Origin: Acinetobacter wanghuae
GTDB lineage: Bacteria > Pseudomonadota > Gammaproteobacteria > Pseudomonadales > Moraxellaceae
Assembly (NCBI RefSeq): GCF_009557235.1
Contig: NZ_CP045650.1
Coordinates: forward strand, 900,001 to 932,000
Direction of reading: 5' to 3'
DNA length: 32,000 nucleotides
The translations under genes and the position numbers were made by a program. Of the stretch, positions 5,623-32,000 are shown piece by piece. The notes beneath the pieces are model-generated. The model had not been told where the DNA came from. It saw only the letters and a program-made list of their open reading frames with translations, and did not search any database. Within the stretch, counting starts at the first letter, position 1; the number at the start of each line of letters is the position of its first letter.

Positions 5623-6210
5623 TCAACGTTTAAAACGCAAAGATGTTTCGGGTGTAATCAAGGCATCTAATGGCTGATCCCATGGTTGACGAATAAATGT
5701 TTGCTGCACAAGTTGAAAATGATGTGCGATCCCGAGTCGATAAGGACGATAAGGCGCGCTTGCTAGGGTACGATCATAATAACCACCACCCATTCCAATA
5801 CGTGAGCCTAAAGTATCACATGCCAATAACGGTAGAATTAACAGGTCTAAATGAGAAACGTGTAAACCCCGTGTTGCCATGGCTTGCTGCATACCTAAAC
5901 GATGATAGGCAAAACGTCGATTTCGGTATTGTTGTTTTGAAATTTCCACCCAAACAAGACGTTGATTCATATTACAAATTAAAGGTAAAAAAACTTTTTT
6001 ATGTTGTTTAAAACAATGTTCGATGATCGCTTGAGTTTGAATTTCTCCGAAGGCGTCAAGATAGATTCCAATCGCATGACTCTGCTTAAAAATAGCATTT
6101 TCTCTTAATTGATGAAGTACTTTTGTAGCCGATTGCTTTTGCTGAAATGTAGACAATTTACGACGTTGCTTACGTATTTTTTTTCTTAGCGTTTGGAAAG
6201 TTTCAGACAT
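5623..6210 (-). CDS. ygfA: 5-formyltetrahydrofolate cyclo-ligase
   Basis: ORF with the family motif GMGGGYYDR near the C-terminus and the right size (~195 aa). The ATG at 6210 (MSETFQ...) is more likely than the TTG at 6225. No clear Shine-Dalgarno sequence precedes either. Confidence 0.8.
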   Translation of the reverse strand: MSETFQTLRKKIRKQRRKLSTFQQKQSATKVLHQLRENAIFKQSHAIGIYLDAFGEIQTQAIIEHCFKQHKKVFLPLICNMNQRLVWVEISKQQYRNRRFAYHRLGMQQAMATRGLHVSHLDLLILPLLACDTLGSRIGMGGGYYDRTLASAPYRPYRLGIAHHFQLVQQTFIRQPWDQPLDALITPETSLRFKR

Positions 6211-6793
6211 AGTTAGGTGTAACAAGGAGTTTATTTTAGTGTAACGCTTCTTTGATTAAATTCAATTCTGACAAATTAAAATTAGACTCAAATAATTATA
6301 TATAAAACTTAAAATTAATTAGAAAATCTTAATTATAGTTTGCGAAAGTATTCGGTTGTTACCTGCAGATTCTATCCTGAATATCAGTTATCACCAGTTA
6401 GAAATTAGAGGTTAAGTACTTATACGCATATCGCATACATATATTACAAATAGATAATACTAAAAATAGGATATTGATTAATATAACTACATAAATCAAC
6501 TATATCATCATTTTTTTATGATTATTAAAATATTGAAAAATAAATATTTATGGTTAAAACATCATCATTTTTAATCAATTTGGTTAAATTCTAATTAATT
6601 GTATTAATTGTGTGAAAAACCCACCAATTAGCTAGATATACAATTAAAAGAAAAAGAGATAATTATACGTGGTTCATATTTAATAGTGTGATAAGTATCA
6701 CGTTATTTATTTTAAGGCATGAGTATAAAGTTAATCGGATTTTATACATTTAATATTTTCTAAACTTTTAAGTTTATTGGGCGGATTTTTGAT

Positions 6794-8086
6794 ATGCAGA
6801 AGCAAGTCATTTCTAAAAGTACATGGGTAAGTAAATTAGTGGATGACAACATCATTCAATTAACTGAAAACTCAGTTGTCATGATTGATGTAACAGAAGA
6901 TCAAATTGAAAAAATTGAAATGGTTGGTAACCAACTTAAAATTACTTTAAAAAATGGTGAAGTGATTATTGTTGATAGTTTTGATCCATCATTCAATGAT
7001 ATTGTCATTCGTACAAGTGATTCAGAATTATTTTTATATGATTTTCCAACAGCAAAATATAATGCGCTAGAAAAATTAGAATTATTAATGGAAAGTGTTC
7101 CAAGCTCAGCAAGTTTTGTGGACGTTTGGCCGTTGGCTGGAATGGGTTTAGGAGCGATTGCACTTGGATTAGCAGCAAAAGAAGGTTCTGATTCAAAAGA
7201 AGAAAACGAGAATGCTTTAAATGAAGCAAAAGATGCGCTAGAACAAGCAATTACTGATGCTGAATCAACACTTGACAGCTTAACTGGTGCAGAAAAAGAA
7301 GCAGCAGAACAAGCGATTGAAGATGCACAAAATGCATTGGCAGACGAAACAGCAACAGCTGAAGATCTAGCACAAGCTCAAAAAGACCTTGACGCAGCAA
7401 TCAAAGAAGCTGAAACAGCACAAGCTGATAAAGATGCTGCGCAAGTTGAAGCAGAACAAGCTCTTGATGAAGCAAAAGATGCGCTAGAACAAGCGATTGT
7501 CGATGCTGAATCAACACTTGATAGCTTAACTGGTGCAGAAAAAGATGCAGCAGAACAAGCGATTGCTGATGCAAAAGATGCCTTAACAGCAGAAGATGCA
7601 ACCGTAGATAGCCTAGAGCAAGCAGCGCAAGATCTTGAATCAGCAATCAAAGAAGCTGAAACAGCACAAAAGGACAAAGACACTGCGCAAGTGGAAGCAG
7701 AACAAGCCCTTGATGAAGCAAAAGATGCACTTGAAAAAGCCATCAAAGATGCTGAATCAACACTTGATAGCTTAACTGGTGCAGAAAAAGAAGCAGCAGA
7801 ACAAGCGATTGCTGATGCAAAAGAGGCCTTAACAGCAGAAGATGCAACGGTAGATGGCCTAGAGGAAGCTCAGACTGATCTTGAATCAGCAATCAAAGAA
7901 GCTGAAACAGCACAAGCTGATAAAGAAGCAGCACAAGTTGAAGCAGAACAAGCTCTTGATCAAGCAAAAGATGCACTTGAAAAAGCCATCAAAGATGCTG
8001 AATCAACACTTGATAGCTTAACTGGTGCAGAAAAAGAAGCAGCAGAACAAGCGATTGCTGATTGCAAAAGATGCCTTAACGCATGA
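6794..8086 (+). CDS. Adhesin N-terminal fragment as assembled (prefix domain, hydrophobic segment, first 3.5 family-A repeats)
   Basis: 430-aa ORF from the track. It ends at a TGA created by local indels in repeat copy 4, seen by comparing 8061-8120 with the equivalent stretch at 7815-7875. Confidence 0.7.
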   Translation: MQKQVISKSTWVSKLVDDNIIQLTENSVVMIDVTEDQIEKIEMVGNQLKITLKNGEVIIVDSFDPSFNDIVIRTSDSELFLYDFPTAKYNALEKLELLMESVPSSASFVDVWPLAGMGLGAIALGLAAKEGSDSKEENENALNEAKDALEQAITDAESTLDSLTGAEKEAAEQAIEDAQNALADETATAEDLAQAQKDLDAAIKEAETAQADKDAAQVEAEQALDEAKDALEQAIVDAESTLDSLTGAEKDAAEQAIADAKDALTAEDATVDSLEQAAQDLESAIKEAETAQKDKDTAQVEAEQALDEAKDALEKAIKDAESTLDSLTGAEKEAAEQAIADAKEALTAEDATVDGLEEAQTDLESAIKEAETAQADKEAAQVEAEQALDQAKDALEKAIKDAESTLDSLTGAEKEAAEQAIADCKRCLNA

Positions 8087-8660
8087 ATCAACGGTAGATG
8101 GCCTAGAGGAAGCTCAACTGATCTTGAATCAGCAATCAAAGAAGCTGAAACAGCACAAGCTGATAAAGAAGCAGCACAAGTTGAAGCAGAACAAGCTCTT
8201 GATCAAGCAAAAGACGCGCTAGAACAAGCAATTACTGATGCTGAATCACAACTTGACAGCTTAACTGGTGCAGAAAAAGATGCAGCAGAGCAAGCGATTG
8301 CAGATGCAACAGATGCCTTAACAGCAGAAGATGCAACCGTAGATAGCCTAGAGCCAGCACAAACTGAGCTTGAATCAGCGATCAAAGATGCTGAAACAGC
8401 ACAAGCTGATAAAGACACTGCGCAAGTGGAAGCAGAACAAGCATTAGATGAAGCAAAAGATGCGCTAGAACAAGCGATTGTCGATGCTGAATCAACACTT
8501 GACAGCTTAACTGGTGCAGAAAAAGGTGCAGCAGAGCAAGCGATTGAAGATGCACAAAATGCATTGGCAGACGAAACAGCAACAGCTGAAGATCTAGCAC
8601 AAGCTCAAAAAGACCTTGACGTAGCAATCAAAGAAGCTGAAACAGCACAAGCTGATAAAG
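7205..8660 (+). repeat. Coding tandem repeat family A: ~6 units of 246 bp (82 aa)
   Basis: The anchor GAAGCAAAAGATGC (caagc variant in some copies) recurs at 7223, 7469, 7715, 7961, 8204 and 8450, a spacing of 246 bp with one 243-bp unit. Unit: EAKDALEQAI.DAESTLDSLTGAEKEAAEQAI.DA..AL...ATV..L..AQ.DL..AIKEAETAQADKDAAQVEAEQALD. Confidence 0.9.
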
Positions 8661-11600
8661 AAGAAGCAAAAGGCGCGCTTGAACAAGCGATTGCGAAAGC
8701 AGATGCAGCATTAACTTCAGAATTACCAAGATTAGATGGTGCAGAACGTGAAGCTGTAATTGCAGAGAAAGCAAAAGCTGAAGCGGCATTAGATAATGCG
8801 TCTTTAACTGCGGATGAATTGCAGGTTGCGGCAGATACATTAGTTAAAGTTGTAGAAGATGCTGTTAAAGCTGAGCAAGTTGAAGATGCAGCAGAAGAAG
8901 CACAAGCCTTAGCTGAAGCAAAAGCAGCATTAACTGATGCGATTGCGAAAGCAGATGCAGCATTAACTTCAGAATTACCAAGATTAGATGGTGCAGAACG
9001 TGAAGCTGTAATTGCGAGAAAGCAAAAGCTGAAGCGCATTAGATATGCGTCTTTACTGCGGATGAATTGCAGGTTGCGGCAGATACATTAGTTAAAGTTG
9101 TAGAAGATGCTGTTAAGCTGAGCAAGTTGAAGATGCAGCAGAAGCGGCTGCAGCAGCAGATAAATTAGCAGCAGAAGACACAAGCCTTAGCTGAAGCAAA
9201 AGCAGCATTAACTGACGATTGCGAAAGCAGATGCAGCATTAACTTCAGAATTACCAAGATTAGATGGTACAACGTGAGCCGTATTAGTTTGAGAAAGGCA
9301 AAAGCTGAAGCGGCATTAGATAATGCGTCTTTAACTGCGGATGAATTGCAGGTTGCGGCAGATACATTAGTTAAAGTTGTAGAAGATGCTGTTAAAGCTG
9401 AGCAAGTTGAAGATGCAGCAGCAGATATTAGCAGCAGAAGAAGCACAGCCTTAGCTGAAGCAAAAGCAGCATTAACTGATGCGATTGCGAAAGCAGATGC
9501 AGCATTAACTTCAGAATTACCAAGATTAGATGGTGCAGAACGTGAAGCTGTAATTGCAGAGAAAGCAAAAGCTGAAGCGGCATTGGATAATGCGTCTTTA
9601 ACTGCGGATGAATTGCAAGTTGCGGCAGATACATTAGTTAAAGTTGTAGAAGATGCTGTTAAAGCTGAGCAAGTTGAAGATGCAGCAGAAGCGGCTGCAG
9701 CAGCAGATAAATTAGCAGCAGAAGAAGCACAAGCCTTAGCTGAAGCAAAAGTAGCATTAACTGATGCGATTGCGAAAGCAGATGCAGCATTAACTTCAGA
9801 ATTACCAAGATTAGATGGTACAGAACGTGAAGCCGTATTAGTTGAGAAAGCAAAAGCTGAAGCGGCATTGGATAATGCGTCTTTAACTGCGGATGAATTG
9901 CAAGTTGCGGCAGATACATTAGTTAAGTTGTAGAAGATGCTGTTAAACGCTGAGCAAGTTGAAGATGCAGCAGAAGCGGCTGCAGCAGCAGATAAATTAG
10001 CAGCAGAAGAAGCACAAGCCTTAGCTGAAGCAAAAGCAGCATTAACTGATGCGATTGCGAAAGCAGATGCAGCATTAACTTCAGAATTACCAAGATTAGA
10101 TGGTGCAGAACGTGAAGCTGTAATTGCAGAGAAAGCAAAAGCTGAAGCGGCATTAGATAATGCGTCTTTAACTGCGGATGAATTGCAGGTTGCGGCAGAT
10201 ACATTAGTTAAAGTTGTAGAAGATGCTGTTAAAGCTGAGCAAGTTGAAGATGCAGCAGAAGCGGCTGCAGCAGCAGATAATTAGCAGCAGAAGAAGCACA
10301 AGCCTTAGCTGAAGCAAAAGCAGCATTAACTGATCGATTGCGAAAGCAGATGCAGCATTAACTTCAGAATTACCAAGATTAGATGGTGCAGAACGTGAAG
10401 CTGTAATTGCAGAGAAAGCAAAAGCTGAAGCGGCAGTTAGATAATGCGTCTTTAACTGCGGATGAATTGCAGGTTGCGGCAGATACATTAGTTAAAGTTG
10501 TAGAAGATGCTGTAAAGCTGAGCAAGTTGAAGATGCAGCAGAAGCGGCTGCAGCAGCAGATAAATTAGCAGCAGAAGAAGCACAAGCCTTAGCTGAAGCA
10601 AAAGCAGCATTAACTGATGCGATTGCGAAAGCAGATGCAGCATTAACTTCAGAATTACCAAGATTAGATGGTGCAGAACGTGAAGCCGTATTAGTTGAGA
10701 AAGCAAAAGCTGAAGCGGCATTAGATAATGCGTCTTTAACTGCGGATGAATTGCAAGTTGCGGCAGATACATTAGTTAAGTTGTAGAAGATGCTGTTAAA
10801 GCTGAGCAAGTTGAAGATGCAGCAGAAGCGGCTGCAGCAGCAGATAATTAGCAGCAGAAGAAGCACAAGCCTTAGCTGAAGCAAAAGCAGCATTAACTGA
10901 TGCGATTGCGAAAGCAGATGCAGCATTAACTTCAGAATTACCAGATTAGATGGTGCAGAACGTGAAGCTGTAATTGCAGAGAAAGCAAAGCTGAAGCGGC
11001 ATTAGATAATGCGTCTTTAACTGCGGATGAATTGCAGGTTGCGGCAGATACATTAGTTAAAGTTGTAGAAGATGCTGTTAAGCTGAGCAAGTTGAAGATG
11101 CAGCAGAAGCGGCTGCAGCAGCAGATAAATTAGCAGCAGAAGAAGCCACTTAGCTGAAGCAAAAGCAGCATAACTGATGCGATTGCGAAAGCAGATGCAG
11201 CATTAACTTCAGAATTACCAAGATTAGATGGTGCAGAACGTGAAGCTGTAATTGCAGAGAAGCAAAAGCTGAAGCGCATTAGATAATGCGTCTTTAACTG
11301 CGGATGAATTGCAGGTTGCGGCAGATACATTAGTTAAAGTTGTAGAAGATGCTGTTAAGCTGAGCAAGTTGAAGATGCAGCAGAAGCGGCTGCAGCAGCA
11401 GATAAATTAGCAGCAGAGAAGACACAGCCTTAGCTGAAGCAAAAGCAGCATTAACTGATGCGATTGCGAAAGCAGATGCAGCATTAACTTCAGAATTACC
11501 AAGATTAGATGGTGCAGAACGTGAAGCCGTATTAGTTGAGAAAGCAAAAGCTGAAGCGGCATTAGATAATGCGTCTTTAACTGCGGATGAATTGCAGGTT

Positions 11601-14169
11601 GCGGCAGATACATTAGTTAAAGTTGTAGAAGATGCTGTTAAAGCTGAGCAAGTTGAAGATGCAGCAGCAGATAAATTAGCAGCAGAAGAAGCACAAGCCT
11701 TAGCTGAAGCAAAAGCAGCATTAACTGATGCGATTGCGAAAGCAGATGCAGCATTAACTTCAGAATTACCAAGATTAGATGGTGCAGAACGTGAAGCTGT
11801 AATTGCAGAGAAAGCAAAAGCTGAAGCGGCATTAGATAATGCGTCTTTAACTGCGGATGAATTGCAGGTTGCGGCAGATACATTAGTTAAAGTTGTAGAA
11901 GATGCTGTTAAAGCTGAGCAAGTTGAAGATGCAGCAGAAGCGGCTGCAGCAGCAGATAAATTAGCAGCAGAAGAAGCACAAGCCTTAGCTGAAGCAAAAG
12001 CAGCATTAACTGATGCGATTGCGAAAGCAGATGCAGCATTAACTTCAGAATTACCAAGATTAGATGGTACAGAACGTGAAGCCGTATTAGTTGAGAAAGC
12101 AAAAGCTGAAGCGGCATTAGATAATGCGTCTTTAACTGCGGATGAATTGCAGGTTGCGGCAGATACATTAGTTAAAGTTGTAGAAGATGCTGTTAAAGCT
12201 GAGCAAGTTGAAGATGCAGCAGCAGATAAATTAGCAGCAGAAGAAGCACAAGCCTTAGCTGAAGCAAAGCATTAACTGATGCGATTGCGAAAGCAGATGC
12301 AGCATTAACTTCAGAATTACCAAGATTAGATGGTGCAGAACGTGAAGCTGTAATTGCAGAGAAAGCAAAAGCTGAAGCGGCATTGGATAATGCGTCTTTA
12401 ACTGCGGATGAATTGCAAGTTGCGGCAGATACATTAGTTAAGTTGTAGAAGATGCTGTTAAAGCTGAGCAAGTTGAAGATGCAGCAGAAGCGGCTGCAGC
12501 AGCAGATAAATTAGCAGCAGAAGAAGCACAAGCCTTAGCTGAAGCAAAAGTAGCATTAACTGATGCGATTGCGAAAGCAGATGCAGCATTAACTTCAGAA
12601 TTACCAAGATTAGATGGTGCAGAACGTGAAGCTGTAATTGCAGAGAAAGCAAAGCTGAAGCGGATTAGATAATGCGTCTTTAACTGCGGATGAATTGCAG
12701 GTTGCGGCAGATACATTAGTTAAAGTTGTAGAAGATGCTGTTAAAGCTGAGCAAGTTGAAGATGCAGCAGAAGCGGCTGCAGCACAGATAAATTAGCAGC
12801 AAGAAGCACAAGCCTTAGCTGAAGCAAAAGCATTAACTGATGCGATGCGAAAGCAGATGCAGCATTAACTTCAGAATTACCAAGATTAGATGGTGCAGAA
12901 CGTGAAGCCGTATTAGTTGAGAAAGCAAAAGCTGAAGCGGCATTAGATAATGCGTCTTTAACTGCGGATGAATTGCAGGTTGCGGCAGATACATTAGTTA
13001 AAGTTGTAGAAGATGCTGTTAAAGCTGAGCAAGTTGAAGATGCAGCAGCAGATAAATTAGCAGCAGAAGAAGCACAAGCCTTAGCTGAAGCAAAAGCAGC
13101 ATTAACTGATGCGATTGCGAAAGCAGATGCAGCATTAACTTCAGAATTACCAAGATTAGATGGTGCAGAACGTGAAGCTGTAATTGCAGAGAAAGCAAAA
13201 GCTGAAGCGGCATTAGATAATGCGTCTTTAACTGCGGATGAATTGCAGGTTGCGGCAGATACATTAGTTAAAGTTGTAGAAGATGCTGTTAAAGCTGAGC
13301 AAGTTGAAGATGCAGCAGAAGCGGCTGCAGCAGCAGATAAATTAGCAGCAGAAGAAGCACAAGCCTTAGCTGAAGCAAAAGCAGCATTAACTGATGCGAT
13401 TGCGAAAGCAGATGCAGCATTAACTTCAGAATTACCAAGATTAGATGGTACAGAACGTGAAGCCGTATTAGTTGAGAAAGCAAAAGCTGAAGCGGCATTA
13501 GATAATGCATCTTTAACTGCGGATGAATTGCAGGTTGCGGCAGATACATTAGTTAAAGTTGTAGAAGATGCTGTTAAAGCTGAGCAAGTTGAAGATGCAG
13601 CAGAAGCGGCTGCAGCAGCAGATAAATTAGCAGCAGAAGAAGCACAAGCCTTAGCTGAAGCAAAAGCAGCATTAACTGATGCGATTGCGAAAGCAGATGC
13701 AGCATTAACTTCAGAATTACCAAGATTAGATGGTGCAGAACGTGAAGCTGTAATTGCAGAGAAAGCAAAAGCTGAAGCGGCATTAGACAATGCGTCTTTA
13801 ACTGCGGATGAATTGCAAGTTGCGGCAGATACATTAGTTAAAGTTGTAGAAGATGCAGTGAATGCTGAATCTGTGGAAGATGCAGCAGAAGCGGCTGCAG
13901 CAGCAGATAAATTAGCAGCAGAAGAAGCACAAGCCTTAGCTGAAGCAAAAGCAGCATTAACTGATGCGATTGCGAAAGCAGATGCAGCATTAACTTCAGA
14001 ATTACCAAGATTAGATGGTGCAGAACGTGAAGCTGTAATTGCAGAGAAAGCAAAAGCTGAAGCGGCATTAGACAATGCGTCTTTAACTGCGGATGAATTG
14101 CAAGTTGCGGCAGATACATTAGTTAAAGTTGTAGAAGATGCAGTGAATGCTGAATCTGTGGAAGATGCA
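8661..14169 (+). repeat. Coding tandem repeat family B: ~19-20 units of 285 bp (95 aa), with 270-bp and one 252-bp length variants
   Basis: The anchor GCAGATACAT recurs at 8831, 9079, 9358, 9625, 9910, 10195, 10479, 10763, 11044, 11321, 11604, 11874, 12159, 12425, 12707, 12985, 13255, 13540, 13825 and 14110 (hand count). Unit: AKADAALTSELPRLDG(A/T)EREAV(IA/LV)EKAKAEAALDNASLTADELQVAADTLVKVVEDAVKAEQVEDAA(EAAAA)DKLAAEEAQALAEAKAALTDAI. Confidence 0.9.
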
Positions 14170-14799
14170 GCAGAGGCACAAGCACAAGCTGAAGCAGCAG
14201 CAAAAGCGGAATCAGAAGCACTAGAAGCAGCGAAAGCAGCATTGGGTAAAGCAATTCAAGCTGCAGAAGATGCGTTAAGTACAACAGCTAAGCCACAATT
14301 GGATGGCGATGAACTTAAAGCTGTGTTGATTGAAAAAGCCAAAGCTGAAGTGGCATTTGAAAATGAAGCTTTAACTGCAGCGCAATTAAAAACTGCAGCA
14401 GATACATTAAATAAAGTTGTAGAAGATGCAGTGAATGCTGAATCTGTGGAAGATGCAGCAGAGGCACAAGCACAAGCTGAAGCAGCAGCAAAAGCGGAAT
14501 CAGAAGCACTAGAAGCAGCGAAAGCAGCATTGGGTAAAGCAATTCAAGCTGCAGAAGATGCGTTAAGTACAACAGCTAAGCCACAATTGGATGGTGATGA
14601 ACTTAAAGCTGTGTTGATTGAAAAAGCCAAAGCTGAAGTGGCATTTGAAAATGAAGCTTTAACTGCAGCGCAATTAAAAACTGCAGCAGATACATTAAAT
14701 AAAGTTGTAGAAGATGCAGTGAATGCTGAATCTGTGGAAGATGCAGCAGAGGCACAGCACAAGCTGAAGCAGCAGCAAAAGCGGAATCAGAAGCACTAG
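12973..14799 (+). CDS. Adhesin internal fragment as assembled (clean family B units plus the first family C units)
   Basis: 608-aa ORF from the track. It ends because of a single missing base near 14757, where ggcacagcacaagctg replaces ggcacaagcacaagctg of the other copies. Confidence 0.6.
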   Translation: MQVAADTLVKVVEDAVKAEQVEDAAADKLAAEEAQALAEAKAALTDAIAKADAALTSELPRLDGAEREAVIAEKAKAEAALDNASLTADELQVAADTLVKVVEDAVKAEQVEDAAEAAAAADKLAAEEAQALAEAKAALTDAIAKADAALTSELPRLDGTEREAVLVEKAKAEAALDNASLTADELQVAADTLVKVVEDAVKAEQVEDAAEAAAAADKLAAEEAQALAEAKAALTDAIAKADAALTSELPRLDGAEREAVIAEKAKAEAALDNASLTADELQVAADTLVKVVEDAVNAESVEDAAEAAAAADKLAAEEAQALAEAKAALTDAIAKADAALTSELPRLDGAEREAVIAEKAKAEAALDNASLTADELQVAADTLVKVVEDAVNAESVEDAAEAQAQAEAAAKAESEALEAAKAALGKAIQAAEDALSTTAKPQLDGDELKAVLIEKAKAEVAFENEALTAAQLKTAADTLNKVVEDAVNAESVEDAAEAQAQAEAAAKAESEALEAAKAALGKAIQAAEDALSTTAKPQLDGDELKAVLIEKAKAEVAFENEALTAAQLKTAADTLNKVVEDAVNAESVEDAAEAQHKLKQQQKRNQKH

Positions 14800-15600
14800 A
14801 AGCAGCGAAAGCAGCATTGGGTAAAGCAATTCAAGCTGCAGAAGATGCGTTAAGTACAACAGCTAAGCCACAATTGGATGGTGATGAACTTAAAGCTGTG
14901 TTGATTGAAAAAGCCAAAGCTGAAGTGGCATTTGAAAATGAAGCTTTAACTGCAGCGCAATTAAAAACTGCAGCAGATACATTAAATAAAGTTGTAGAAG
15001 ATGCAGTGAATGCTGAATCTGTGGAAGATGCAGCAGAGGCACAAGCACAAGCTGAAGCAGCAGCAAAAGCGGAATCAGAAGCACTAGAAGCAGCGAAAGC
15101 AGCATTGGGTAAAGCAATTCAAGCTGCAGAAGATGCGTTAAGTACAACAGCTAAGCCACAATTGGATGGTGATGAACTTAAAGCTGTGTTGATTGAAAAA
15201 GCCAAAGCTGAAGTGGCATTTGAAAATGAAGCTTTAACTGCAGCGCAATTAAAAACTGCAGCAGATACATTAAATAAAGTTGTAGAAGATGCAGTGAATG
15301 CTGAATCTGTGGAAGATGCAGCAGAGGCACAAGCACAAGCTGAAGCAGCAGCAAAAGCGGAATCAGAAGCACTAGAAGCAGCGAAAGCAGCATTGGGTAA
15401 AGCAATTCAAGCTGCAGAAGATGCGTTAAGTACAACAGCTAAGCCACAATTGGATGGCGATGAACTTAAAGCTGTGTTGATTGAAAAAGCCAAAGCTGAA
15501 GTGGCATTTGAAAATGAAGCTTTAACTGCAGCGCAATTAAAAACTGCAGCAGATACATTAAATAAAGTTGTAGAAGATGCAGTGAATGCTGAATCTGCGG
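14170..15600 (+). repeat. Coding tandem repeat family C: 5 units of 288 bp (96 aa)
   Basis: The anchor GCAGATACATTAAATAAAG recurs at 14398, 14686, 14973, 15261 and 15549. Unit: AQAQAEAAAKAESEALEAAKAALGKAIQAAEDALSTTAKPQLDGDELKAVLIEKAKAEVAFENEALTAAQLKTAADTLNKVVEDAVNAESVEDAAE. The copies are almost identical at the DNA level. Confidence 0.9.
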
Positions 15601-21085: not shown

Positions 21086-21102
21086 AAAAGTAGGAACATG
21101 TT

Positions 21103-22215: not shown

Positions 22216-22847
22216 TGCAGATTTTAATTCAAGATCAGCCGTTTGAGAAAATTGAATTTCAAGCGGTGTTATTTGATTTAGATGGTACTTTGGTTGAATC
22301 AACAGGGCTCATTAGAGATATTTTATCGCACTGGGCGGTTGAGCAAGGTTTAGATGCTGACGCTGTATTGAACTTTTCGCATGGCAAGCGGACTCAAGAT
22401 ATTGTGGCGAACTTTATTCACGATGAATCTTGTTCGTTGCATTATCAAAAGTTAACCGAGAAATTTTTAGCAGCATCAGTTCATACGCAAGCCATTCAAG
22501 CTGCTGCAACATTTATTCAGGTTTTAAATCAACATCATGTACCTTGGGCAGTGGTCAGTTCTTCTGAACGCGAGTTGATTTTTGCACGTATGCAAGCAGC
22601 AGATTTACCGATGCCAGAATATGTGGTCGCAGCGGAAGATATTGTTCAGGGGAAACCCAATCCCGAAGGTTATTTAAACGGGGCGAAGCTACTTCATATC
22701 CCGCTTGAGCAATGTGTAGTGTTTGAAGATTCAGCAGCAGGTATTCAGGCAGCACAGGCCGCTGGTGCTCAAGTTATTGTTGTGGGTGCTGAAGACGCTG
22801 CATATACGCATATCTCAGACTTTGGTCAGATCAAATATCTGGACTAA
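22215..22847 (+). CDS. HAD-superfamily phosphatase (beta-phosphoglucomutase / sugar-phosphatase-like subfamily IA)
   Basis: 210 aa with HAD motif I LFDLDGTLVES, GKPNPEGY and FEDSAAG. Its start overlaps the upstream stop (TAATG). Confidence 0.8.
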   Translation: MQILIQDQPFEKIEFQAVLFDLDGTLVESTGLIRDILSHWAVEQGLDADAVLNFSHGKRTQDIVANFIHDESCSLHYQKLTEKFLAASVHTQAIQAAATFIQVLNQHHVPWAVVSSSERELIFARMQAADLPMPEYVVAAEDIVQGKPNPEGYLNGAKLLHIPLEQCVVFEDSAAGIQAAQAAGAQVIVVGAEDAAYTHISDFGQIKYLD

Positions 22848-22871
22848 ATACTCTTAATGTGTTGTAAAAAA

Positions 22872-24371: not shown

Positions 24372-24830
24372 ATGTCTAAGTTTTCTAAAATAAGTTTTTT
24401 GTTTATAGCGATGATTCTGAGTTTGGCAGCCTTGGTATTTTTGCTGAAACCAAATAATGCTGAACTGCATCAAAGCAATTCAACTCATCCAATCGTATTG
24501 AAGCAAAACGTATCTCAACTTAATCCACAAACCACGACAGTGGAAATATCTTCGGATACTCAAAAAGATGAAGCATTCTTAGAGCAGCGAACAAGATTGT
24601 ATGAATTTTTAGGTGAACTTTCGTTTGATATGATTGAAGGGCAAAAGCCAGATTTAAGACAAGTCACAGACATGATGAGATCGCAAAATGAATTGGTCAG
24701 ACAAGGGCTTGTCGAGCCGCAAGAAGCATTGAATTACTTAGAATTTTTGAAACAGATTTTTCCAGAAATGGAAACTGAATTGGTCGCATTTATTGAAGAA
24801 ATAAATGCTGAAAATGATTTGAAAAAATAA
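24372..24830 (+). CDS. Hypothetical protein with an N-terminal membrane anchor and an acidic helical C-terminal part
   Basis: 152-aa ORF. The hydrophobic segment is ISFLFIAMILSLAALVFLL. I recognise no family. Its stop codon directly abuts the ssrS-derived repeat. Confidence 0.5.
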   Translation: MSKFSKISFLFIAMILSLAALVFLLKPNNAELHQSNSTHPIVLKQNVSQLNPQTTTVEISSDTQKDEAFLEQRTRLYEFLGELSFDMIEGQKPDLRQVTDMMRSQNELVRQGLVEPQEALNYLEFLKQIFPEMETELVAFIEEINAENDLKK

Positions 24831-24888
24831 ACACTCCGACGATGCCGCTGCAATATTATTACCCTGAACCCGATGAATTTAAAGATGA
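24829..24888 (-). repeat. Displaced partial copy of the 3'-terminal 60 nt of the 6S RNA gene (candidate attR-type island boundary)
   Basis: Hand alignment with 31874-31933 gives 52/60 identical positions, with perfect blocks of 26 nt (aaacactccgacgatgccgctgcaat) and 18 nt (ttaccctgaacccgatga). Both copies are in the same orientation. Similarity ends abruptly at 24889. Confidence 0.8.
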
Positions 24889-24969
24889 TTACATCAATTA
24901 AGCAACATTAAAATGTATTGAACAATAAAAATAATTCTATAATGCATCTTAATTTCTTTAAAAATAAAA

Positions 24970-24993
24970 AGCCGATCCCAAGATCAGCTTTTT
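24970..24993 (-). terminator. Terminator of the minus-strand PepSY operon (hairpin with one mismatch, T-run on the minus strand)
   Basis: The minus strand reads aaaaagctgatcttgggatcggcttttta, about 24 nt after the stop at 25017. Confidence 0.65.
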
Positions 24994-25016
24994 ATTGCAT
25001 ATTAAAACTCAATCAC

Positions 25017-25355
25017 TTAAATACTGCACATGATTCCAGTGATGAGTGCAACCACCGCACACGCAATGACAATAAGTTTAATTTTGTTTTGCGCGTAGCT
25101 CAGACTTAGTCCTACCAAAATGGCAGCAAAACTCAAGCTACCGACCCAATAACTGATCATATTACTAAGTGCACCAGTGATAGCACAAAGTCCTAAAGCA
25201 ACGGCTAAAATGATCCAACCCAAAATTGTGGCAAGTCGGGTTTTAGGGGCAGCTAATATTTGTCCAAATATTTGTTTTTGATGTTTTTGCATAGATGCTG
25301 CTAGTGCAAAGAATCCAAGCGAGGTAATAGACCAAATCAGTAAAAAGAACATCAT
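25017..25355 (-). CDS. Small polytopic membrane protein (of the kind annotated DUF3325 next to PepSY-TM genes)
   Basis: 112 aa, 3-4 hydrophobic helices. Its start overlaps the PepSY stop (ATGA). The DUF name is from memory of this conserved gene trio and is unverified. Confidence 0.6.
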   Translation of the reverse strand: MMFFLLIWSITSLGFFALAASMQKHQKQIFGQILAAPKTRLATILGWIILAVALGLCAITGALSNMISYWVGSLSFAAILVGLSLSYAQNKIKLIVIACAVVALITGIMCSI

Positions 25356-27202
25356 GATACAGACTCCTCTATCGCCACTTTACCTTTCTTCGTAGCCAAG
25401 CCTTTATGACTTTTCACTCGTTTGAATGCAAATAAGAAGATGAGTGCCATGACCCACATTGCAAGATCAAAAGAGGCAATCATCCATTGACCATTCGTTA
25501 TGGTATTCCAAAGGGCTTGCCCACCTGTTAAGACATTTACAATGGGGAGGAGTGCAAAAGCAATCGTTGCAAAGGCTAAAAGTTCTAACCATGCTTGACG
25601 ATGATTTCGGATAATTGCATAAACCAATACCAATGCCCAGACGATAAAGAAGCTTCGGATTTCCCAATTTAGACGCATCGCCATATCCGCAGGAATGAAA
25701 CGATTGGCGTAGAAATATGCAGCACATGCGATCGGTAAACCGATAATGGCGGCAATGTTTGTGACTTCCACCAGACGGTAACCAAATGATTTATAGCCTT
25801 GCTTCTGCTGTTGTGGCGCACGTTTGATACACCATAAAATCAAGCCTGTTGCAATCATTAAGGTGCCCACTACACCTGACATAAACAGTAACCAACGTAA
25901 GGCTAAGTCAACGCCACGTGCTTCATGCAACGAGGTAAAGACGTTATAAATGCCATTGGCGACAGAAGGGGTTTTGAATACAGTTTGATCGGTCTTCAAT
26001 TCACCATTTACGCCATTGAACGCTAAGCTTGGGTAAACATTACGATAGGCAACACTGACACCATTTAGCGCTTTCAGCTCGATTTCTGCTTTACTCGTAT
26101 TTGGTTTAATAATGGTGATGGTTGCGACTTCATTTTTAGGCCATTCTTTTTGCGCCGTTGCAAAAATCGGTTCGAAATCTGTCAATGCTGCAGGGCGTTC
26201 ACGACGACCTTCGTCACGACCACGTCTGCCTTCACCGTCACCACGTACATTCATAGCAGCATGTTCGTTTTTTCCACGTGGGCGACCTTCACCTTTAGAA
26301 CGTTCTTGACGACCTTCTGCATGATCACCGCGTGCTTGCATATTCCCACGTTCAGCGTGACCTTCGCTATTACGTAAGCCACGTTCTTCGCCGTCACCAC
26401 GCGCAGACATGCCACCGCGTTCATCACGACCTTCCTTCGATTCAGCTTTGTTGCCATTGTCTTGAATCAGGCTTTTACGTTGCTCTTGTAAAAATGCACC
26501 GCGATTCTCATAAATCTGGTTGACCCCCCAAGGCATGATCGTAAATAGAAGTAATAATAAACCACTGAAAGTAATCATGATATGGAAGGGGAGTGCAAAT
26601 ACAGCAGTCGCATTATGTGCATCGAGCCATGAGCGTTGCCCCTTACCAGGGCGGAAGGTGAAGAAATCTTTAAAAATTTTCTTATGGGTAATGACACCAC
26701 TAATGATGGCAACCAACATGAGTAAAGTTGCGATACCCACAATCCAGCGTGCCCACATGCGCGGTAAGCCATACAATTCAAAATGAAAACGATACAAGAA
26801 GCTACCGCCACGTGTTTCGCGAGCTTCTAATACTTCACCTGTTGCACTATCAAGGGTAATTCGCGTGCCACCGCGACGTGCACGTGGGTCTTCGTCGACA
26901 CCACGCACACTAATTGTTGTCACATTTTGACGAGAATTGGGGAGTTGAATTGACCAACTGCCTGCATCGGCATGATGTTGTTGTAAGTAGTCTAATGCAA
27001 CACGGGTTTGTTCAATTTGAGAGGGTTGAGGCACAGATTGATGAAATTCTGGCTTCATCCATGTACTAATTTCATTTTGGAAAAAGCTTAAAGTGCCTGT
27101 TAAAAAGATGGCATACAACAGCCAACCTAAAATTAGACTTGCCCATGTATGTAGCCATGACATCGATTGGCGTGGACCTTCTGGTTTTGCATCGGGTCTC
27201 AT
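25352..27202 (-). CDS. PepSY-associated transmembrane protein (PiuB/FoxB-like putative ferric-siderophore reductase family) with an Arg/Gly/Glu-rich insertion
   Basis: 616 aa. The N-terminal WLHTWASLILGWLLYAIFLTGTLSFF is the typical PepSY-TM helix motif, and several more TM helices follow. It sits next to a TonB-dependent receptor and Fur boxes. Confidence 0.75.
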   Translation of the reverse strand: MRPDAKPEGPRQSMSWLHTWASLILGWLLYAIFLTGTLSFFQNEISTWMKPEFHQSVPQPSQIEQTRVALDYLQQHHADAGSWSIQLPNSRQNVTTISVRGVDEDPRARRGGTRITLDSATGEVLEARETRGGSFLYRFHFELYGLPRMWARWIVGIATLLMLVAIISGVITHKKIFKDFFTFRPGKGQRSWLDAHNATAVFALPFHIMITFSGLLLLLFTIMPWGVNQIYENRGAFLQEQRKSLIQDNGNKAESKEGRDERGGMSARGDGEERGLRNSEGHAERGNMQARGDHAEGRQERSKGEGRPRGKNEHAAMNVRGDGEGRRGRDEGRRERPAALTDFEPIFATAQKEWPKNEVATITIIKPNTSKAEIELKALNGVSVAYRNVYPSLAFNGVNGELKTDQTVFKTPSVANGIYNVFTSLHEARGVDLALRWLLFMSGVVGTLMIATGLILWCIKRAPQQQKQGYKSFGYRLVEVTNIAAIIGLPIACAAYFYANRFIPADMAMRLNWEIRSFFIVWALVLVYAIIRNHRQAWLELLAFATIAFALLPIVNVLTGGQALWNTITNGQWMIASFDLAMWVMALIFLFAFKRVKSHKGLATKKGKVAIEESVS

Positions 27203-27203
27203 A

Positions 27204-27560
27204 TTATCGTCCTAAAAAGCGGTAGATGATGTAGAACAAAACACATGGAATCATGATGCCTAAACTTGCTTTTAATGTTTTATTCACCATAAATACCCAA
27301 ATAAATGCACAGGCTTGCAAGGTAAAAGCTATTAATGTCGCAGACATCGCTGCACTCGTACCAAAATCAGAAAATAATTGTGCAATTACAATGGCAACAA
27401 GGGATGCCAATATATACCCACCTAAAGCTGCTAATAGAAAACGATAAAAAATCATGAAACGATAAGACATTATTTTTGGCTTATATTTAGTTTCGGACGA
27501 TGTTTTAGATGTAAGAACCTGATCAGCGGCTACAACATCCATATTCGGACTACTCATCAT
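27204..27560 (-). CDS. Small membrane protein, first gene of the PepSY operon (DUF3649-like)
   Basis: The ORF track starts at a TTG at 27578. The ATG at 27560 has GGAG 10 nt upstream. There are two or three hydrophobic helices. Its stop lies 1 nt from the PepSY ATG (TAATATG). Confidence 0.55.
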   Translation of the reverse strand: MMSSPNMDVVAADQVLTSKTSSETKYKPKIMSYRFMIFYRFLLAALGGYILASLVAIVIAQLFSDFGTSAAMSATLIAFTLQACAFIWVFMVNKTLKASLGIMIPCVLFYIIYRFLGR

Positions 27561-27600
27561 TGAAAATTCGCTCCACAACTATTGGGAATTTTATTGTTGC

Positions 27601-27639
27601 GAATGATAACAATTATTATTTATATTTTGAATCATTATC
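27601..27639. promoter_or_regulatory. Fur box pair upstream of the minus-strand PepSY operon
   Basis: AATGATAACAATTATT (27602-27617) matches AATGATAATCATTATC of the Fur consensus GATAATGATAATCATTATC at 13/16 positions. TGAATCATTATC (27628-27639) matches the consensus 3' half. Confidence 0.7.
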
Positions 27640-27772
27640 TTAAAATATTATTTTATGAGCATGTGAGATAGTTAATTATTAATTAACTCATTGTTTATAA
27701 ACTAAAATAAATCAGAAATAGAGTTTTAAAAAACACATATATGAAGAAAAATTTAGCAATCCACGCCTCTAC

Positions 27773-27794
27773 ATTAATGATAATAATTATCATT
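27773..27794. promoter_or_regulatory. Fur box upstream of the TonB-dependent receptor gene
   Basis: attAATGATAATAATTATC (27773-27791) matches the 19-bp Fur consensus at 16/19 positions, and the core 16-mer at 15/16. It lies about 85 nt upstream of the ATG at 27877. Confidence 0.8.
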
Positions 27795-27876
27795 TGCTAT
27801 TGAATTCTCATTTGTTTTGACTACAATGAGCCAAAATCTACATATTTACTCCATAATTATGGATGGGAAATTTATA

Positions 27877-30048
27877 ATGAATAGCCGTTTTTTGAAATCA
27901 ACATTGGCTTTTGCTGTACTTACAGCAATGGGTTTACCTACTCAAGCACAAGAACAAACAGCAAAGCTAGATACGATTGTGGTCACAACGGCAGGTGGAT
28001 ACGAACAGAATATTGCAGATGCTGCAGCAACGATATCGGTGATTACAGCCGAAGAACTTCAAAAAAAATCATATAGTGATGTCACGGATGCCTTAAAAAA
28101 TGTACCTGGTGTATTTGTACAGGGTGGTGGTACAAACCAAACTGTTTCTATTCGTGGTATGGGCTCAGCATATACACTATTTTTAATTGATGGTCGTCCT
28201 ATGAATGATGGAAGTCTGTTGACAACCAACGGCGGTATTCAAGGTGCATCGGTTAACTTCTTACCACCCATTGAGTCGATTGAGCGTATTGAAATTATTC
28301 GTGGCCCATCGTCTTCACTTTATGGTTCAGATGCCATGGGTGGTGTGATCAATATCATCACGAAGAAACATCAAGATCGTTTGACTGCAAGTATTCGTAC
28401 CGAATATATCAAAGCGGATAAGTCCAATGATGTGAACAATGATGCAACCAATACCAGCCTTTATGTCAATGCACCGTTAATTGATAACTTGTTGTCTTTA
28501 CAAGTGACGGCAGGTCTTCAAACGATTGATGAAAGTTCACTGCAAAAGAACACTGCTGAAACGGGTGAAAGTGAGCCTGATTTCCAAAAAACAAACATCG
28601 GAACCAAGTTTGTATATACCCCGGATGATAAAAATACCATCACAGCTGAATATAAACGTACGCAACAAGAGCGTACCCATAACCCCGGTAAAAGTTATAC
28701 GAAGTACGTTTCTGCCACAGGTTCTAAAGTTGACATAGGGGGTGAAGACTTTATTTTATCTAATAATAACTATTATCCCGCTTTTGATACGGGTGAAAAG
28801 GATAAAAATGGAAATGCGATTTATCAATCTGATGTAGTGCCAAATACACGTACATATTCTGAGCTTGAAAAAAATAGCTATAGCCTGACCCATGATGGTG
28901 ATTACGATAATTTAAAACTTACGTCATATATTCAGTATGATAAAGACGAAAATAATGCAATTACAGGCCGTACAGTGAATGGCATTACCAATCCAGGCGG
29001 TATTTTATTTGAAACTTTAACGGCTAACACTCAAGGGACTTATTTCTTTGATCAGCATACTTTAACCGTGGGTGGTCGTTACTTAAAAGAAAACTTAGAA
29101 GATGGTACATCTAACCAAAATGTCGAAATGGCAGGTCAGGTCACCAAGATGGATCGTTACCAATGGTCGTTATTTGCTGAAGATACATGGAGTGTAACGG
29201 ACAAACTAGCACTGACGCTCAGTGGTCGTTTAGATGAAAACGAATTCTTTGGAGATAACTTCAGTCCTAAAGCTTATGCCGTGTATAAAGCCACAGACAG
29301 CTTTACCTTTAAAGGCGGGGTGATCTCTGGATATAAAGCACCCAGTCTGCGTAATTCATCGCCTGAATATATGTTGAACTCAATGGGTGGGGCAATCATG
29401 CCAAATCCAGATTTAAAACCTGAAACAAGCCTAACCTACGAAACAGGCTTTGCTTATGAAAATCAAGATTTAGGTCTACTCGCGAGTTTGATGTTCTACC
29501 AAACCGACTTTAAAGACAAAATTACCCGTTCGTCACGTATGCAAGGGAGTCAAGACGCGGACAGCGATTTCTATAAGGAACATCCTGAGCTACCCTACAA
29601 TGCCAATGGTTATACCTATAACTATAACGTGGATGAAGCACAAATTCGTGGCATTGAACTCACCACAGATTATCAAATCACGGACAATGTGAAATATCGT
29701 CATTCGTATACATATACCAACAGTGAGCAAAAGTCTGGTCAGTATGAAGGCAAACCATTAAATGATATCCCTAAGCATATGTTTAATGCAGGGCTAGATT
29801 GGGATGTAAATGACAAATTGCTGTTATGGAGCCAACTGAACTATCGTGGTAAGACAGTCGGGAATACATCCGACGTACAAACCCCTGAATATACTTTTGT
29901 GGACGTAGGCGCAGTCTATAAGCACGACGAAAAGCTTCAATTCTCAACAGGTATTTATAACCTGACCAATAAGAACGTCCTTGAAGATGGCAACTCGTGG
30001 GTATTGGACGGTCGACGATATAATTTCGCTTTAAATTATAAATTCTAA
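27877..30048 (+). CDS. TonB-dependent siderophore/iron receptor
   Basis: MNSRFLKSTLAFAVLTAMGLPTQAQE is a signal peptide. It has a TonB box LDTIVVTT, plug motifs (IRGMGS..., LIDGRPM, IEIIRGPSSSLYGSDAMGGVINIIT) and a C-terminal ...YNFALNYKF with terminal Phe. I prefer the start at ATG 27877 to the TTG at 27817. Confidence 0.9.
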   Translation: MNSRFLKSTLAFAVLTAMGLPTQAQEQTAKLDTIVVTTAGGYEQNIADAAATISVITAEELQKKSYSDVTDALKNVPGVFVQGGGTNQTVSIRGMGSAYTLFLIDGRPMNDGSLLTTNGGIQGASVNFLPPIESIERIEIIRGPSSSLYGSDAMGGVINIITKKHQDRLTASIRTEYIKADKSNDVNNDATNTSLYVNAPLIDNLLSLQVTAGLQTIDESSLQKNTAETGESEPDFQKTNIGTKFVYTPDDKNTITAEYKRTQQERTHNPGKSYTKYVSATGSKVDIGGEDFILSNNNYYPAFDTGEKDKNGNAIYQSDVVPNTRTYSELEKNSYSLTHDGDYDNLKLTSYIQYDKDENNAITGRTVNGITNPGGILFETLTANTQGTYFFDQHTLTVGGRYLKENLEDGTSNQNVEMAGQVTKMDRYQWSLFAEDTWSVTDKLALTLSGRLDENEFFGDNFSPKAYAVYKATDSFTFKGGVISGYKAPSLRNSSPEYMLNSMGGAIMPNPDLKPETSLTYETGFAYENQDLGLLASLMFYQTDFKDKITRSSRMQGSQDADSDFYKEHPELPYNANGYTYNYNVDEAQIRGIELTTDYQITDNVKYRHSYTYTNSEQKSGQYEGKPLNDIPKHMFNAGLDWDVNDKLLLWSQLNYRGKTVGNTSDVQTPEYTFVDVGAVYKHDEKLQFSTGIYNLTNKNVLEDGNSWVLDGRRYNFALNYKF

Positions 30049-30052
30049 GGAA

Positions 30053-30074
30053 ATAGGGCGAAAGCCCTATTTTT
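30053..30074 (+). terminator. Rho-independent terminator after the receptor gene
   Basis: Stem ATAGGGC/GCCCTAT with a GAAA loop, then TTTT, immediately after the TAA at 30046-30048. Confidence 0.8.
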
Positions 30075-30101
30075 AAATCGCTACAGTTCCAAAGGTGAAG
30101 T

Positions 30102-31391
30102 ATGAAAAGAAATCAGGGCTACGTCACTGATACCGTTTTTCCAGCATTCTTTTATAAGGAAATGCAACCTGAGTGGTTAAATACGATCACTCAGTTTTTA
30201 GGATTTAAAGGTGTCGATTTTACCGCTCCTTTTTCTTATTTAGAGTTAGCTTGCGGAACGGGTATCAATTTAATTGTCGCGGCAATGAATCATCCACAAA
30301 GTTACTTTGTAGGTGTAGATTTCAACTCGCAGCATATACGTGAGGCGCAAGCGTTCGCTGAGCAATTAGAGCTTAAAAACATAGCGTTTATTGAAGCGGA
30401 TTTTCAAACCTTTTATGAGTGCAATCAAACTCAGTTTGATTTTATTACGGTGCATGGCGCGTATTCGTGGGTCGCACCAATACAACAACAAGAAATTTTA
30501 GCCATAACGGCAAAATTCCTTAAATCACAGGGGATTTTTTATTTACATTATATGTGCTATCCAGGCTCGTTACATTTACAACCTGTACAAAAGTTATTTA
30601 ACTTAATTGATCAGCACGTGCCCACAGCATCTACTGAAAGTATTCAACTTGGAAAAGCCTTATTTAACGATTTGCATGAACATGGTGCCTTTGTTGATCA
30701 ACCACAAATGGAGGCATTGCTGAATACGTTGAACAATAGTTCTGACTATTTGACACATGAACTTCTCACCGATCACTGGCAACCTTTATATAGTGTCGAT
30801 GTTCATCAACAGGCACATCAATTAAGTGGCTTAACCTATATTGGAAGTGCAGAGCCGACTGAAAATTTGGACAGCATTAGTATTCCAAATGCGCTGCAAC
30901 CCATGGTGAGTAAAGTAAAAATACCTGAGCTAAAAGAATACTTAAAAGATCTGGCTCGAAATAGTAAACAACGCACCGACATTTACCAAAAACATCCGAT
31001 TCAACTTCAGCAAAATGAACATTTAGAAGTGCTGAAGCAAATGAAATTTGAATTAGTGCATTTAGGAGCAAACGCCAACGTTACAAAGTTCCAAACACCA
31101 ATTGGAGAGATGATTGCATCCGAAAAGTTGATCGAAAAAATGCTAACTGCCTTTGCCCATGAAAAACGGGGTTTTAACGACTTTATACAGTTAACAGAAT
31201 TTCAGCAGAATCCTATTTATTTAATTGAAACTTTATTCTTGCTGTTGAGTAATCAATATATTTATCCAGTGAAAAGTTCAGGAAATAAGAGAAATCAAAT
31301 TCATTCGGATCAATTTAATCAGTTTATGGAAGTAAAAAAAATTGCGTTAAGATTTAAAGAAAATTCACCCATTCCAATCTATGTCAGTTAA
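30102..31391 (+). CDS. Class I SAM-dependent methyltransferase with a long C-terminal extension
   Basis: 429 aa. SAM-binding motif I is YLELACGTGINLIV, with an acidic residue in VGVDFN and IEADF downstream. The ~250-aa C-terminal part is unassigned and may be the methyltransferase regulatory domain type. Confidence 0.7.
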   Translation: MKRNQGYVTDTVFPAFFYKEMQPEWLNTITQFLGFKGVDFTAPFSYLELACGTGINLIVAAMNHPQSYFVGVDFNSQHIREAQAFAEQLELKNIAFIEADFQTFYECNQTQFDFITVHGAYSWVAPIQQQEILAITAKFLKSQGIFYLHYMCYPGSLHLQPVQKLFNLIDQHVPTASTESIQLGKALFNDLHEHGAFVDQPQMEALLNTLNNSSDYLTHELLTDHWQPLYSVDVHQQAHQLSGLTYIGSAEPTENLDSISIPNALQPMVSKVKIPELKEYLKDLARNSKQRTDIYQKHPIQLQQNEHLEVLKQMKFELVHLGANANVTKFQTPIGEMIASEKLIEKMLTAFAHEKRGFNDFIQLTEFQQNPIYLIETLFLLLSNQYIYPVKSSGNKRNQIHSDQFNQFMEVKKIALRFKENSPIPIYVS

Positions 31392-31873
31392 CAAAAAAGT
31401 TTCTATAGGAGTGATGCTCATCGTTTAAGCGTTTTAGAACTAAAATAAGTGGTTATGCAGATTGTAGTCAATTCACAGGAATAAATAGGCTTAAATGTAT
31501 ATGCTCAATTTATTCCTATAGAGCAATTCTAAGGGAGGAGAGGCTAGGTCAAAAAATATCTATAGCTGATGGATATATAGAAAGTGCATTTACTCATATA
31601 TATAGCTTTGATCGAGTAACCATGACAGGCATGAGATTAAAATAGGACAATAGCTTTGTAGTGGTTTGAGGCTAGACATAATGAGAGCCAGCAAAGTAGA
31701 AAAAAGCGCTGACATTTATAGGAAATATTGAGTTATTTTTGAAACTTTCATTTTTCTATCAAGATAAGATTGATAGACCATTTTTGGGTATACATGGCGT
31801 ATACAAAGAGCTAAAAATGATTTGGCGGGGAATTTTGAAATTTTATTTGTGACGGTTAGAACACAATCATTAA

Positions 31874-32000
31874 AAACACTCCGACGATGCCGCTGCAATG
31901 TCGTTACCCTGAACCCGATGAGTTCAAGGTGGACGCGACGCATACTTGCTGGGTTTCCTGCACGAAGGCAGGCATACACTCTAAATATACAGAACACATC
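31874..32000 (-). ncRNA. ssrS: 6S RNA gene, 3' ~127 nt (5' end beyond the window edge)
   Basis: The minus strand reads ...GCGTCGCGTCCACCTTGAACTCATCGGGTTCAGGGTAACGACATTGCAGCGGCATCGTCGGAGTGTTT. This is collinear with the E. coli 6S RNA 3' part ...GCGACGACACAUUCACCUUGAACCAAGGGUUCAAGGGUUACAGCCUGCGGCGGCAUCUCGGAGAUU (from memory). An internal hairpin CCTGCCTTCGTGCAGG lies upstream. Confidence 0.8.

Follow-up and report, generated by a model that had tools for sequence, protein, structure and literature searches.

In Escherichia coli, the 6S RNA gene ssrS belongs to a zapA-ssrS-ygfA transcription unit. Oliveira, Touchon and Rocha reportedly described, in 2017, chromosomal hotspots of horizontal gene transfer (HGT) that lie between conserved core genes. 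In Acinetobacter baumannii, ssrS is moreover a target of phages: prophage Phi19606 lies between copies of a 60-nt ssrS repeat, other strains hold other phages at this place (PMC8914354), and ssrS heads the prophage integration hotspots of the species in a 2025 survey (PMC11998280). Here we describe a stretch of 32,000 nucleotides from Acinetobacter wanghuae (the window; contig NZ_CP045650.1, positions 900,001 to 932,000) in which ssrS and ygfA, the gene for 5-formyltetrahydrofolate cyclo-ligase, stand far apart. We consider it probable that the interval between them is a slot of genus-wide gene turnover that holds at least three independently derived blocks. The A. wanghuae genome (2.77 Mb, 40.6% guanine plus cytosine, GC) is labeled G000, further Acinetobacter species carry other G-numbers and single loci carry L-numbers; positions without a label are those of the window.

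In G000, zapA, ssrS and ygfA keep the canonical order and strand. The ssrS gene runs 56 nt past the window end, and the full gene (G000:C1:931875-932056) scores 95.6 bits against the Rfam 6S/SsrS model. Upstream of it lie zapA (PF05164) and a UPF0149/YgfB-like gene, so the canonical neighborhood is otherwise intact. On the other side, ygfA is the core gene that bounds the slot, and the next gene is lon (3049-5481); this lon-ygfA flank is kept in all 18 of 18 relatives. The two genes are not directly adjacent, as a gap of 25,648 bp (6226-31873), filled mostly with plus-strand genes, separates them. An earlier, sequence-only reading of the window had placed ssrS and ygfA on the minus strand, in canonical order and 25.6 kb apart, and the Rfam and Pfam matches put them at 31874 and 5623-6225, in agreement with it. 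Because ssrS and ygfA are oriented away from almost all genes across this distance, their co-transcription is implausible on the basis of gene arrangement, and ygfA may be independently expressed. It would then need a promoter of its own, possibly within the AT-rich spacer beside it.

The interval was compared across the genus using 121 species representatives, in 87 of which ssrS and ygfA share one contig. Order and strand are kept in 79 of these 87 species, whereas the gap varies from 285 bp to 62 kb. The comparison of contents covers 77 intervals, 76 from other species and the window's own, which together contain 835 open reading frames (ORFs) in 428 families. As many as 329 of the families occur in a single genome, and 54 distinct architectures were counted. 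Species with near-identical ygfA can have very different gaps, as seen in G107 and G092 (2.2 kb vs 17 kb), in G004 and G119 compared with G052 (1.3 kb vs 42 kb), and in G116 and G086 (14 kb vs 54 kb). These are features of an HGT hotspot: conserved flanking core genes, many unrelated families and differences between close relatives. We conclude from these comparisons that the Acinetobacter ssrS-ygfA interval appears to be a hotspot of gene turnover bounded by core genes.

The ancestral state was addressed in 20 other genera of Moraxellaceae. In 11 of them, both genes share a strand and 14-322 bp lie between them; in three they are unlinked; and in one, three of the four genomes have 7-8 kb inserted between the two. 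Given the short gap in 11 other genera, adjacency of ssrS and ygfA appears to be the ancestral state in the family. The synteny comparison and tabulation of contents that the sequence-only reading had proposed thus yield conserved linkage with hypervariable contents. Neither observation that would have spoken against that reading was made, since ssrS and ygfA are linked in Moraxellaceae and the 25 kb is not conserved synteny of the genus.

Some residents of the slot recur. The commonest pair next to ygfA, in 27 of the 77 intervals, is copA-cueR-like: a MerR-family regulator accompanies a heavy-metal P-type ATPase whose N-terminal part has Cys-rich repeats. An AdeT-type solute-binding protein is another recurrent resident. 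The metal-related genes seen in the slot comprise TonB receptors, PepSY reductases and copA-cueR.

The block directly downstream of ssrS in G000 is a 6,991-bp iron-uptake island. It ends at a displaced copy of the ssrS 3′ end, and the internal ssrS remnant noticed in the sequence-only reading is real and marks one junction: positions 24829-24882 match 31874-31927 over 54 nt with 91% identity. It is detected independently by nhmmer (24820-24885, E 5e-10) and overlaps the stop codon of the neighboring small gene. The last 54 nt of the intact ssrS act as attL, the left junction of the attachment (att) site, and the displaced copy as attR. Five changes separate the two copies, three of them G/C-to-A/T in the remnant, and both copies carry lineage-specific features that are absent from relatives.

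Displaced ssrS 3′ copies were found inside the intervals of five genomes (G000, G052, G081, G086 and G091) by self-comparison and a genus-specific nhmmer profile, which also gave a weak 36-nt match in the G092 interval. The left boundary of the G000 remnant, TCATCGGG..., is the same as in the other four, with one start base (...TCATCGGGTTCAGGG) common to all five. In G052, G081, G086 and G091, ssrS 3′ repeats of 54-59 nt bound elements of 13-41 kb. Those of G052 and G086 are prophages (41 and 35 kb) in which a gene for a 450-460 amino acid protein with Arm-DNA-bind_3 and Phage_integrase domains begins ~150 bp past ssrS. Integrase fragments occupy the same place in G081, G013 and G082. The 13-kb element of G081 encodes TonB/ExbBD-like proteins and carries receptor-sized ORFs and an insertion sequence (IS).

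Since its start base is shared with integrase-bearing elements, we read the G000 remnant as a true att-type scar. The ~90-bp arm of the island directly downstream of ssrS (31784-31873) is furthermore 79% identical to an arm in G013 that precedes the integrase fragment there. The bounding of the iron module by ssrS repeats, also part of the sequence-only reading, is therefore borne out by a boundary that matches integrase-bearing elements at ssrS elsewhere. Taken together, the region 24883-31873 appears to be an old island that inserted at the ssrS 3′ att site and has since lost its integrase. A tblastn search with all proteins of the G000 interval found the iron module in none of the 76 other intervals. 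Its PepSY part has homologs of 72-75% DNA identity at unrelated loci in many relatives, and the receptor-methyltransferase pair has a homolog in G001 only, at another locus.

The association of this integrase family with 6S RNA extends to public genomes, where 12 Acinetobacter loci carry relatives of the ssrS-linked integrase. Nine of the relatives are at least 56% identical, and a 6S RNA gene ends ~150 bp upstream of the integrase in seven of these nine loci (six besides that of G086 itself). The other three loci, at 44-46% identity, have no 6S RNA upstream, and one of them adjoins a tRNA gene. With a 68-nt probe, 10 of the 121 species proved to have a further copy of the ssrS 3′ end. Separately, four Acinetobacter species, among them A. 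genomosp. 15BJ and A. colistiniresistens, carry three full-length 6S RNA genes in tandem, ~330 bp apart. An 8-nt insertion is present in copies 1 and 2, which form a distinct sequence variant, and copy 3, which lies beside the integrase, is of the usual genus type.

Next to the scar lies a beta-propeller lipoprotein gene with its small neighbor, and this pair has a different distribution. Among all G000 interval proteins, only these two recur in the 76 other intervals by tblastn (G013, G054, G107 and G120; 81-84% identity for the propeller protein). The propeller gene is present in 37 of the 121 species at 80-89% identity and lies elsewhere in the chromosome in most of them. It adjoins ygfA in five species besides G000, including G107, G054, G120 and G041. 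The G107 interval consists of the pair alone, in the order ssrS, small gene, propeller gene and ygfA, a layout that resembles an empty site for the iron island, although G107 is a distant species. Apart from a 12-nt TTAATATACAAA-like motif that they share with G000 upstream of the propeller gene, the spacers between the propeller gene and ygfA in G107, G054 and G120 have diverged too far from the G000 junctions to be aligned. The pair therefore appears to be an older resident of the slot rather than private cargo of G000. The sequence-only reading had taken all intervening DNA to be accessory. This is upheld for the adhesin, the thiM operon and the iron module, each found in 0 of 76 intervals, and does not extend to the propeller pair, with its presence in ~37 of 121 species.

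The operon of genes for a ThiM-family kinase, a rhodanese-like protein, a monooxygenase and a HAD phosphatase is present as the sequence-only reading had listed it (Pfam, NCBIfam). The same tblastn search found it in 0 of the 76 other intervals. An ortholog of its monooxygenase, with at least 83% amino acid identity, occurs in three of the 121 species including G000, and seven others have only paralogs of ~36-37%. G042 carries the whole operon at another locus with 84% DNA identity (L112:6523-14460, contig C118), flanked on one side by a frameshifted IS6-type transposase and on the other by a 1,021-amino acid ORF that has a Phage_integrase domain. The monooxygenase proteins of G042 and G000 are 98% identical, and a recent transfer was considered on this ground; it was rejected, as the DNA identity is only 84%, like the divergence of the core. 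This combination of protein and DNA identity indicates that the operon is under strong purifying selection, as judged from the sequence comparison.

The largest block is the Bap/LapF-type adhesin region. It comprises a BapA_N prefix, helical FIVAR-like tandem repeats of 246 bp and 285 bp, and Ig-like domains. The N-terminal domain is BapA prefix-like (PF22783, E 1e-15; NF033677, E 2e-11). At the C-terminus, NF045619 scores 141.6 bits with a cut-off of 180 and NF045618 matches with E 2e-20, below its cut-off. A match to RTX repeats is weak (E 0.002). No ortholog was found in the 76 other intervals by tblastn, and matches elsewhere in the genus are C-terminal only, at 37-47%.

The reading frame of the adhesin, traced by the repeat motif, switches ~20 times between 8084 and 14800 and is thus not uninterrupted. 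All breaks are 1-bp indels within otherwise near-identical 246-bp and 285-bp units, and two apparent in-frame stops each arise from paired indels. When the 285-bp units are aligned, they have hardly any substitutions. Single-base deletions are scattered among them, often within A-runs, and four of the units are perfect. The adhesin is also the sole disrupted gene in the window. Consensus errors fit near-substitution-free repeats with 1-bp deletions better than decay does, and the frame breaks are probably an artifact of long-read consensus or assembly. The 12.3-kb adhesin gene of the sequence-only reading is accordingly present as a Bap-type region (6794-19133), although as assembled it is not a single gene. 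The suggestion that it is island cargo holds insofar as the region is accessory, whereas there is no sign that an island brought it.

Very large surface proteins are encoded in other intervals as well, with ORFs of up to 6,356 amino acids in G017, G024, G027, G072 and G103 (L054, L064-65, L038, L076-77 and L078-79). They adjoin a protein with an OmpA/BamE domain, and their C-termini may resemble the anchors of trimeric autotransporters. With a Bap-like adhesin of the type I secretion (T1SS) kind in G000 and autotransporter-like giants in others, the slot would host adhesins of different secretion types. At an unrelated locus in G008 (G008:C1:125228-137394), ~40 tandem 303-bp repeats share a 47-nt stretch with the first repeat family of the adhesin, which points to another giant repeat protein there.

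How might the G000 interval have been assembled? We propose that the iron island would have been brought in by a tyrosine integrase that recombined it into the last ~54-60 nt of ssrS. Integration would rebuild the ssrS 3′ end as attL and leave the displaced copy 7 kb away as attR, directly against the gene that was formerly next to ssrS. The island could later have lost its integrase while the scar gained several substitutions, becoming a fixed, immobile remnant. The propeller pair would be the older resident, carried beside ygfA in several other species too. If its adjacency to ygfA is indeed older, the thiM operon and adhesin inserted away from the att site. They would have arrived between the pair and ygfA without an ssrS scar, most likely by exchange through homologous recombination between conserved flanks, or through mobile elements that have since decayed.

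Several observations weigh against this account. Neither an integrase nor a fragment of one was found in 24883-31873 by tblastn with three ssrS-linked integrases (E ≤ 10); the involvement of an integrase is therefore argued from the scar and the cross-species comparison. Base composition gives no sign of foreign origin, with blocks at 0.39-0.43 GC and the genome at 0.406; exceptions are the C-terminal part of the adhesin (0.35) and the 568-bp spacer (22.5%). The nearest species compared shares only ~80% identity with G000 in core DNA. The ygfA tree is unresolved at depth with G000 on a long branch, and it does not order the propeller-ygfA adjacency relative to the thiM and adhesin insertions.

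The sequence-only reading had proposed that islands accreted serially at the 3′ end of ssrS. The iron module with its att scar agrees with this, and no further remnant accompanies the thiM operon or the adhesin. In its full form, every block, including these two, would have entered at the ssrS att site and pushed older ones toward ygfA, with only the youngest scar surviving. Elements use the att site throughout the genus, and scars do decay, with that of G000 already changed at 5 of 54 positions. Tandem arrays at tRNA-type att sites are also known. Even so, neither the other junctions nor 6226-6793, where a decayed ssrS 3′ fragment had been suspected, contained a second remnant by self-blastn-short, the genus-specific nhmmer profile (--max, E ≤ 1) or Rfam (E ≤ 10). 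In a blastn search of the whole genome, the intergenic spacers, including 6226-6793, showed no repeats, miniature inverted-repeat transposable elements or IS fragments shared with the rest of the genome. The propeller pair moreover adjoins ygfA in four species (G107, G054, G120 and G041) whose intervals show neither the adhesin nor the thiM operon. The G042 copy of that operon neighbors another recombinase and an IS6 element instead of ssrS. Full serial accretion is thus unlikely in our view.

Acinetobacter species are naturally competent, and the repeat might not stem from an integration in the G000 lineage at all. The arrangement could have reached G000 ready-made, through transformation and homologous recombination with DNA of another Acinetobacter, or the repeat could be a local duplication. 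An island that lacks an integrase would suit such an origin, as would the lineage-specific bases shared by both ssrS copies. We rate it as quite improbable, because the repeat boundary equals that of integrase-generated repeats elsewhere to the base and the ssrS-proximal arm is homologous to the G013 arm that precedes an integrase fragment; an imported arrangement would, in any case, still go back to an integrase event in the donor. Least credible by far is that the 25.6 kb represents old core content lost by most other species. The GC content of most blocks near the genome mean would be expected in that case, but three of the four blocks occur in the G000 interval alone among the 77 compared, the thiM operon has an ortholog in only three of 121 species, and ssrS and ygfA are adjacent in outgroup genera. 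Integration of the iron island at ssrS, into a slot that had other residents and other routes of entry, remains the preferred reading.

We further speculate, with considerable doubt, that when ssrS and ygfA ceased to be tightly coupled, at the base of Acinetobacter, a zone with two modes of insertion may have opened, the ssrS att site and recombination in the flanks. The genus would draw on this zone preferentially for the exchange of surface adhesins and metal-uptake genes. The G000 adhesin would then be intact, functional and unusual in its all-helical repeats, and its frame breaks would be sequencing errors.

Coordinates of the features discussed are collected below. One further element is a perfect 36-nt palindrome at window positions 465-500, just past the truncated first gene, which was detected as a self-match on the opposite strand. 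Similar copies are present in several relatives, and it is probably a bidirectional terminator or an element like the repetitive extragenic palindromic (REP) sequences.

Table 1. Features of the A. wanghuae window, and tandem 6S RNA loci of other species. Unlabeled positions refer to the window.
Feature	Location	Strand	Evidence or remark
ygfA (5-formyltetrahydrofolate cyclo-ligase)	5623..6225	-	PF01812, E 5e-34; internal ATG at 6210
Spacer, 568 bp, 22.5% GC, separating the starts of two divergent genes, ygfA and the adhesin	6226..6793	.	no ssrS fragment (nhmmer --max, Rfam at E ≤ 10); no repeat shared with the rest of the genome (blastn)
Bap/LapF-type giant adhesin region	6794..19133	+	BapA_N, FIVAR, Big_6, adhes_GNV_Cterm, ABSDF2314-type C-terminus (Pfam, NCBIfam)
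Four-gene operon: ThiM-family kinase, rhodanese/3-mercaptopyruvate sulfurtransferase-like, SsuD-like luciferase-type monooxygenase, HAD phosphatase	19401..22847	+	Pfam, NCBIfam
Beta-propeller lipoprotein (weak YncE match)	23064-24311	+	tblastn matches in the intervals of G013, G054, G107 and G120
152-amino acid secreted or membrane protein	24372-24830	+	small neighbor of the propeller gene
Displaced ssrS 3′ remnant, attR scar	24829..24882	-	49/54 nt match to 31874-31927 (91%)
Iron-uptake island, 6,991 bp	24883..31873	.	Pfam + NCBIfam
DUF3325 protein	25017-25355	-	in iron island
PepSY_TM protein	25352-27202	-	in iron island
Small membrane protein	27204-27578	-	in iron island
TonB-dependent siderophore-type receptor	27817-30048	+	in iron island
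Methyltransferase with regulatory domain	30102-31391	+	in iron island
Island-side arm directly downstream of ssrS, ~90 bp	31784..31873	-	79% identical to G013 arm (blastn)
ssrS (6S RNA), 3′ two-thirds	31874..32000	-	Rfam RF00013, 58.6 bits in window
Tandem triple 6S RNA loci	G027:C16:296323-297159; G101:C12:6235-7072; L121:1516-2352; L124:1521-2353		

The comparison gives a genus-wide picture of a conserved RNA-gene neighborhood that turned into a hotspot, from 14-322 bp in sister genera to as much as 62 kb in Acinetobacter. The 6S RNA gene serves there as an att site in the way that tRNA and transfer-messenger RNA (tmRNA) genes do, and G000 would illustrate how an island loses its integrase and becomes fixed cargo. 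Annotators can flag three blocks as lineage-specific accessory genes (the iron-uptake module, the thiM-family operon and the adhesin), with the caution that the 'pseudogene' state of the adhesin is probably an assembly artifact. As an att target of A. baumannii prophages ssrS was already known, and current understanding is not overturned. What appears to be new is a cargo-only ssrS island without an integrase in another Acinetobacter species, inside a genus-wide hotspot.

The G000 locus has the same gene order and strand as the E. coli zapA-ssrS-ygfA unit, with zapA upstream, and differs from it in the 25.6-kb separation and in the mostly opposite-strand genes that lie between. Compared with the ssrS prophages of A. 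baumannii (Phi19606 'N60'), the G000 island has the same 3′ target end, a duplication in the 54-60 nt range and an insertion on the ygfA side (PMC8914354, PMC11998280). Unlike them, it is a 7-kb remnant with iron-uptake cargo only, free of phage genes and integrase, its scar is decayed, and its host is a different Acinetobacter species with a small genome.

The ssrS elements also resemble P4-type tyrosine-integrase islands at the 3′ ends of tRNA and tmRNA genes. They place a protein with Arm-DNA-binding and Phage_integrase domains beside an intact RNA gene, restore the 3′ end of the target and leave a displaced partial copy at the far end. They differ in that the target is a 6S RNA gene, and in the G000 window the integrase is gone. 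Finally, as in HGT hotspots between core genes, the zapA-ssrS and ygfA-lon flanks enclose a high diversity of families with fast turnover, and recognizable mobile-element genes are present in only a minority of the ssrS-ygfA intervals. In contrast to such hotspots, one flank of this slot is itself a site-specific att site, so that insertions may arrive by two routes.

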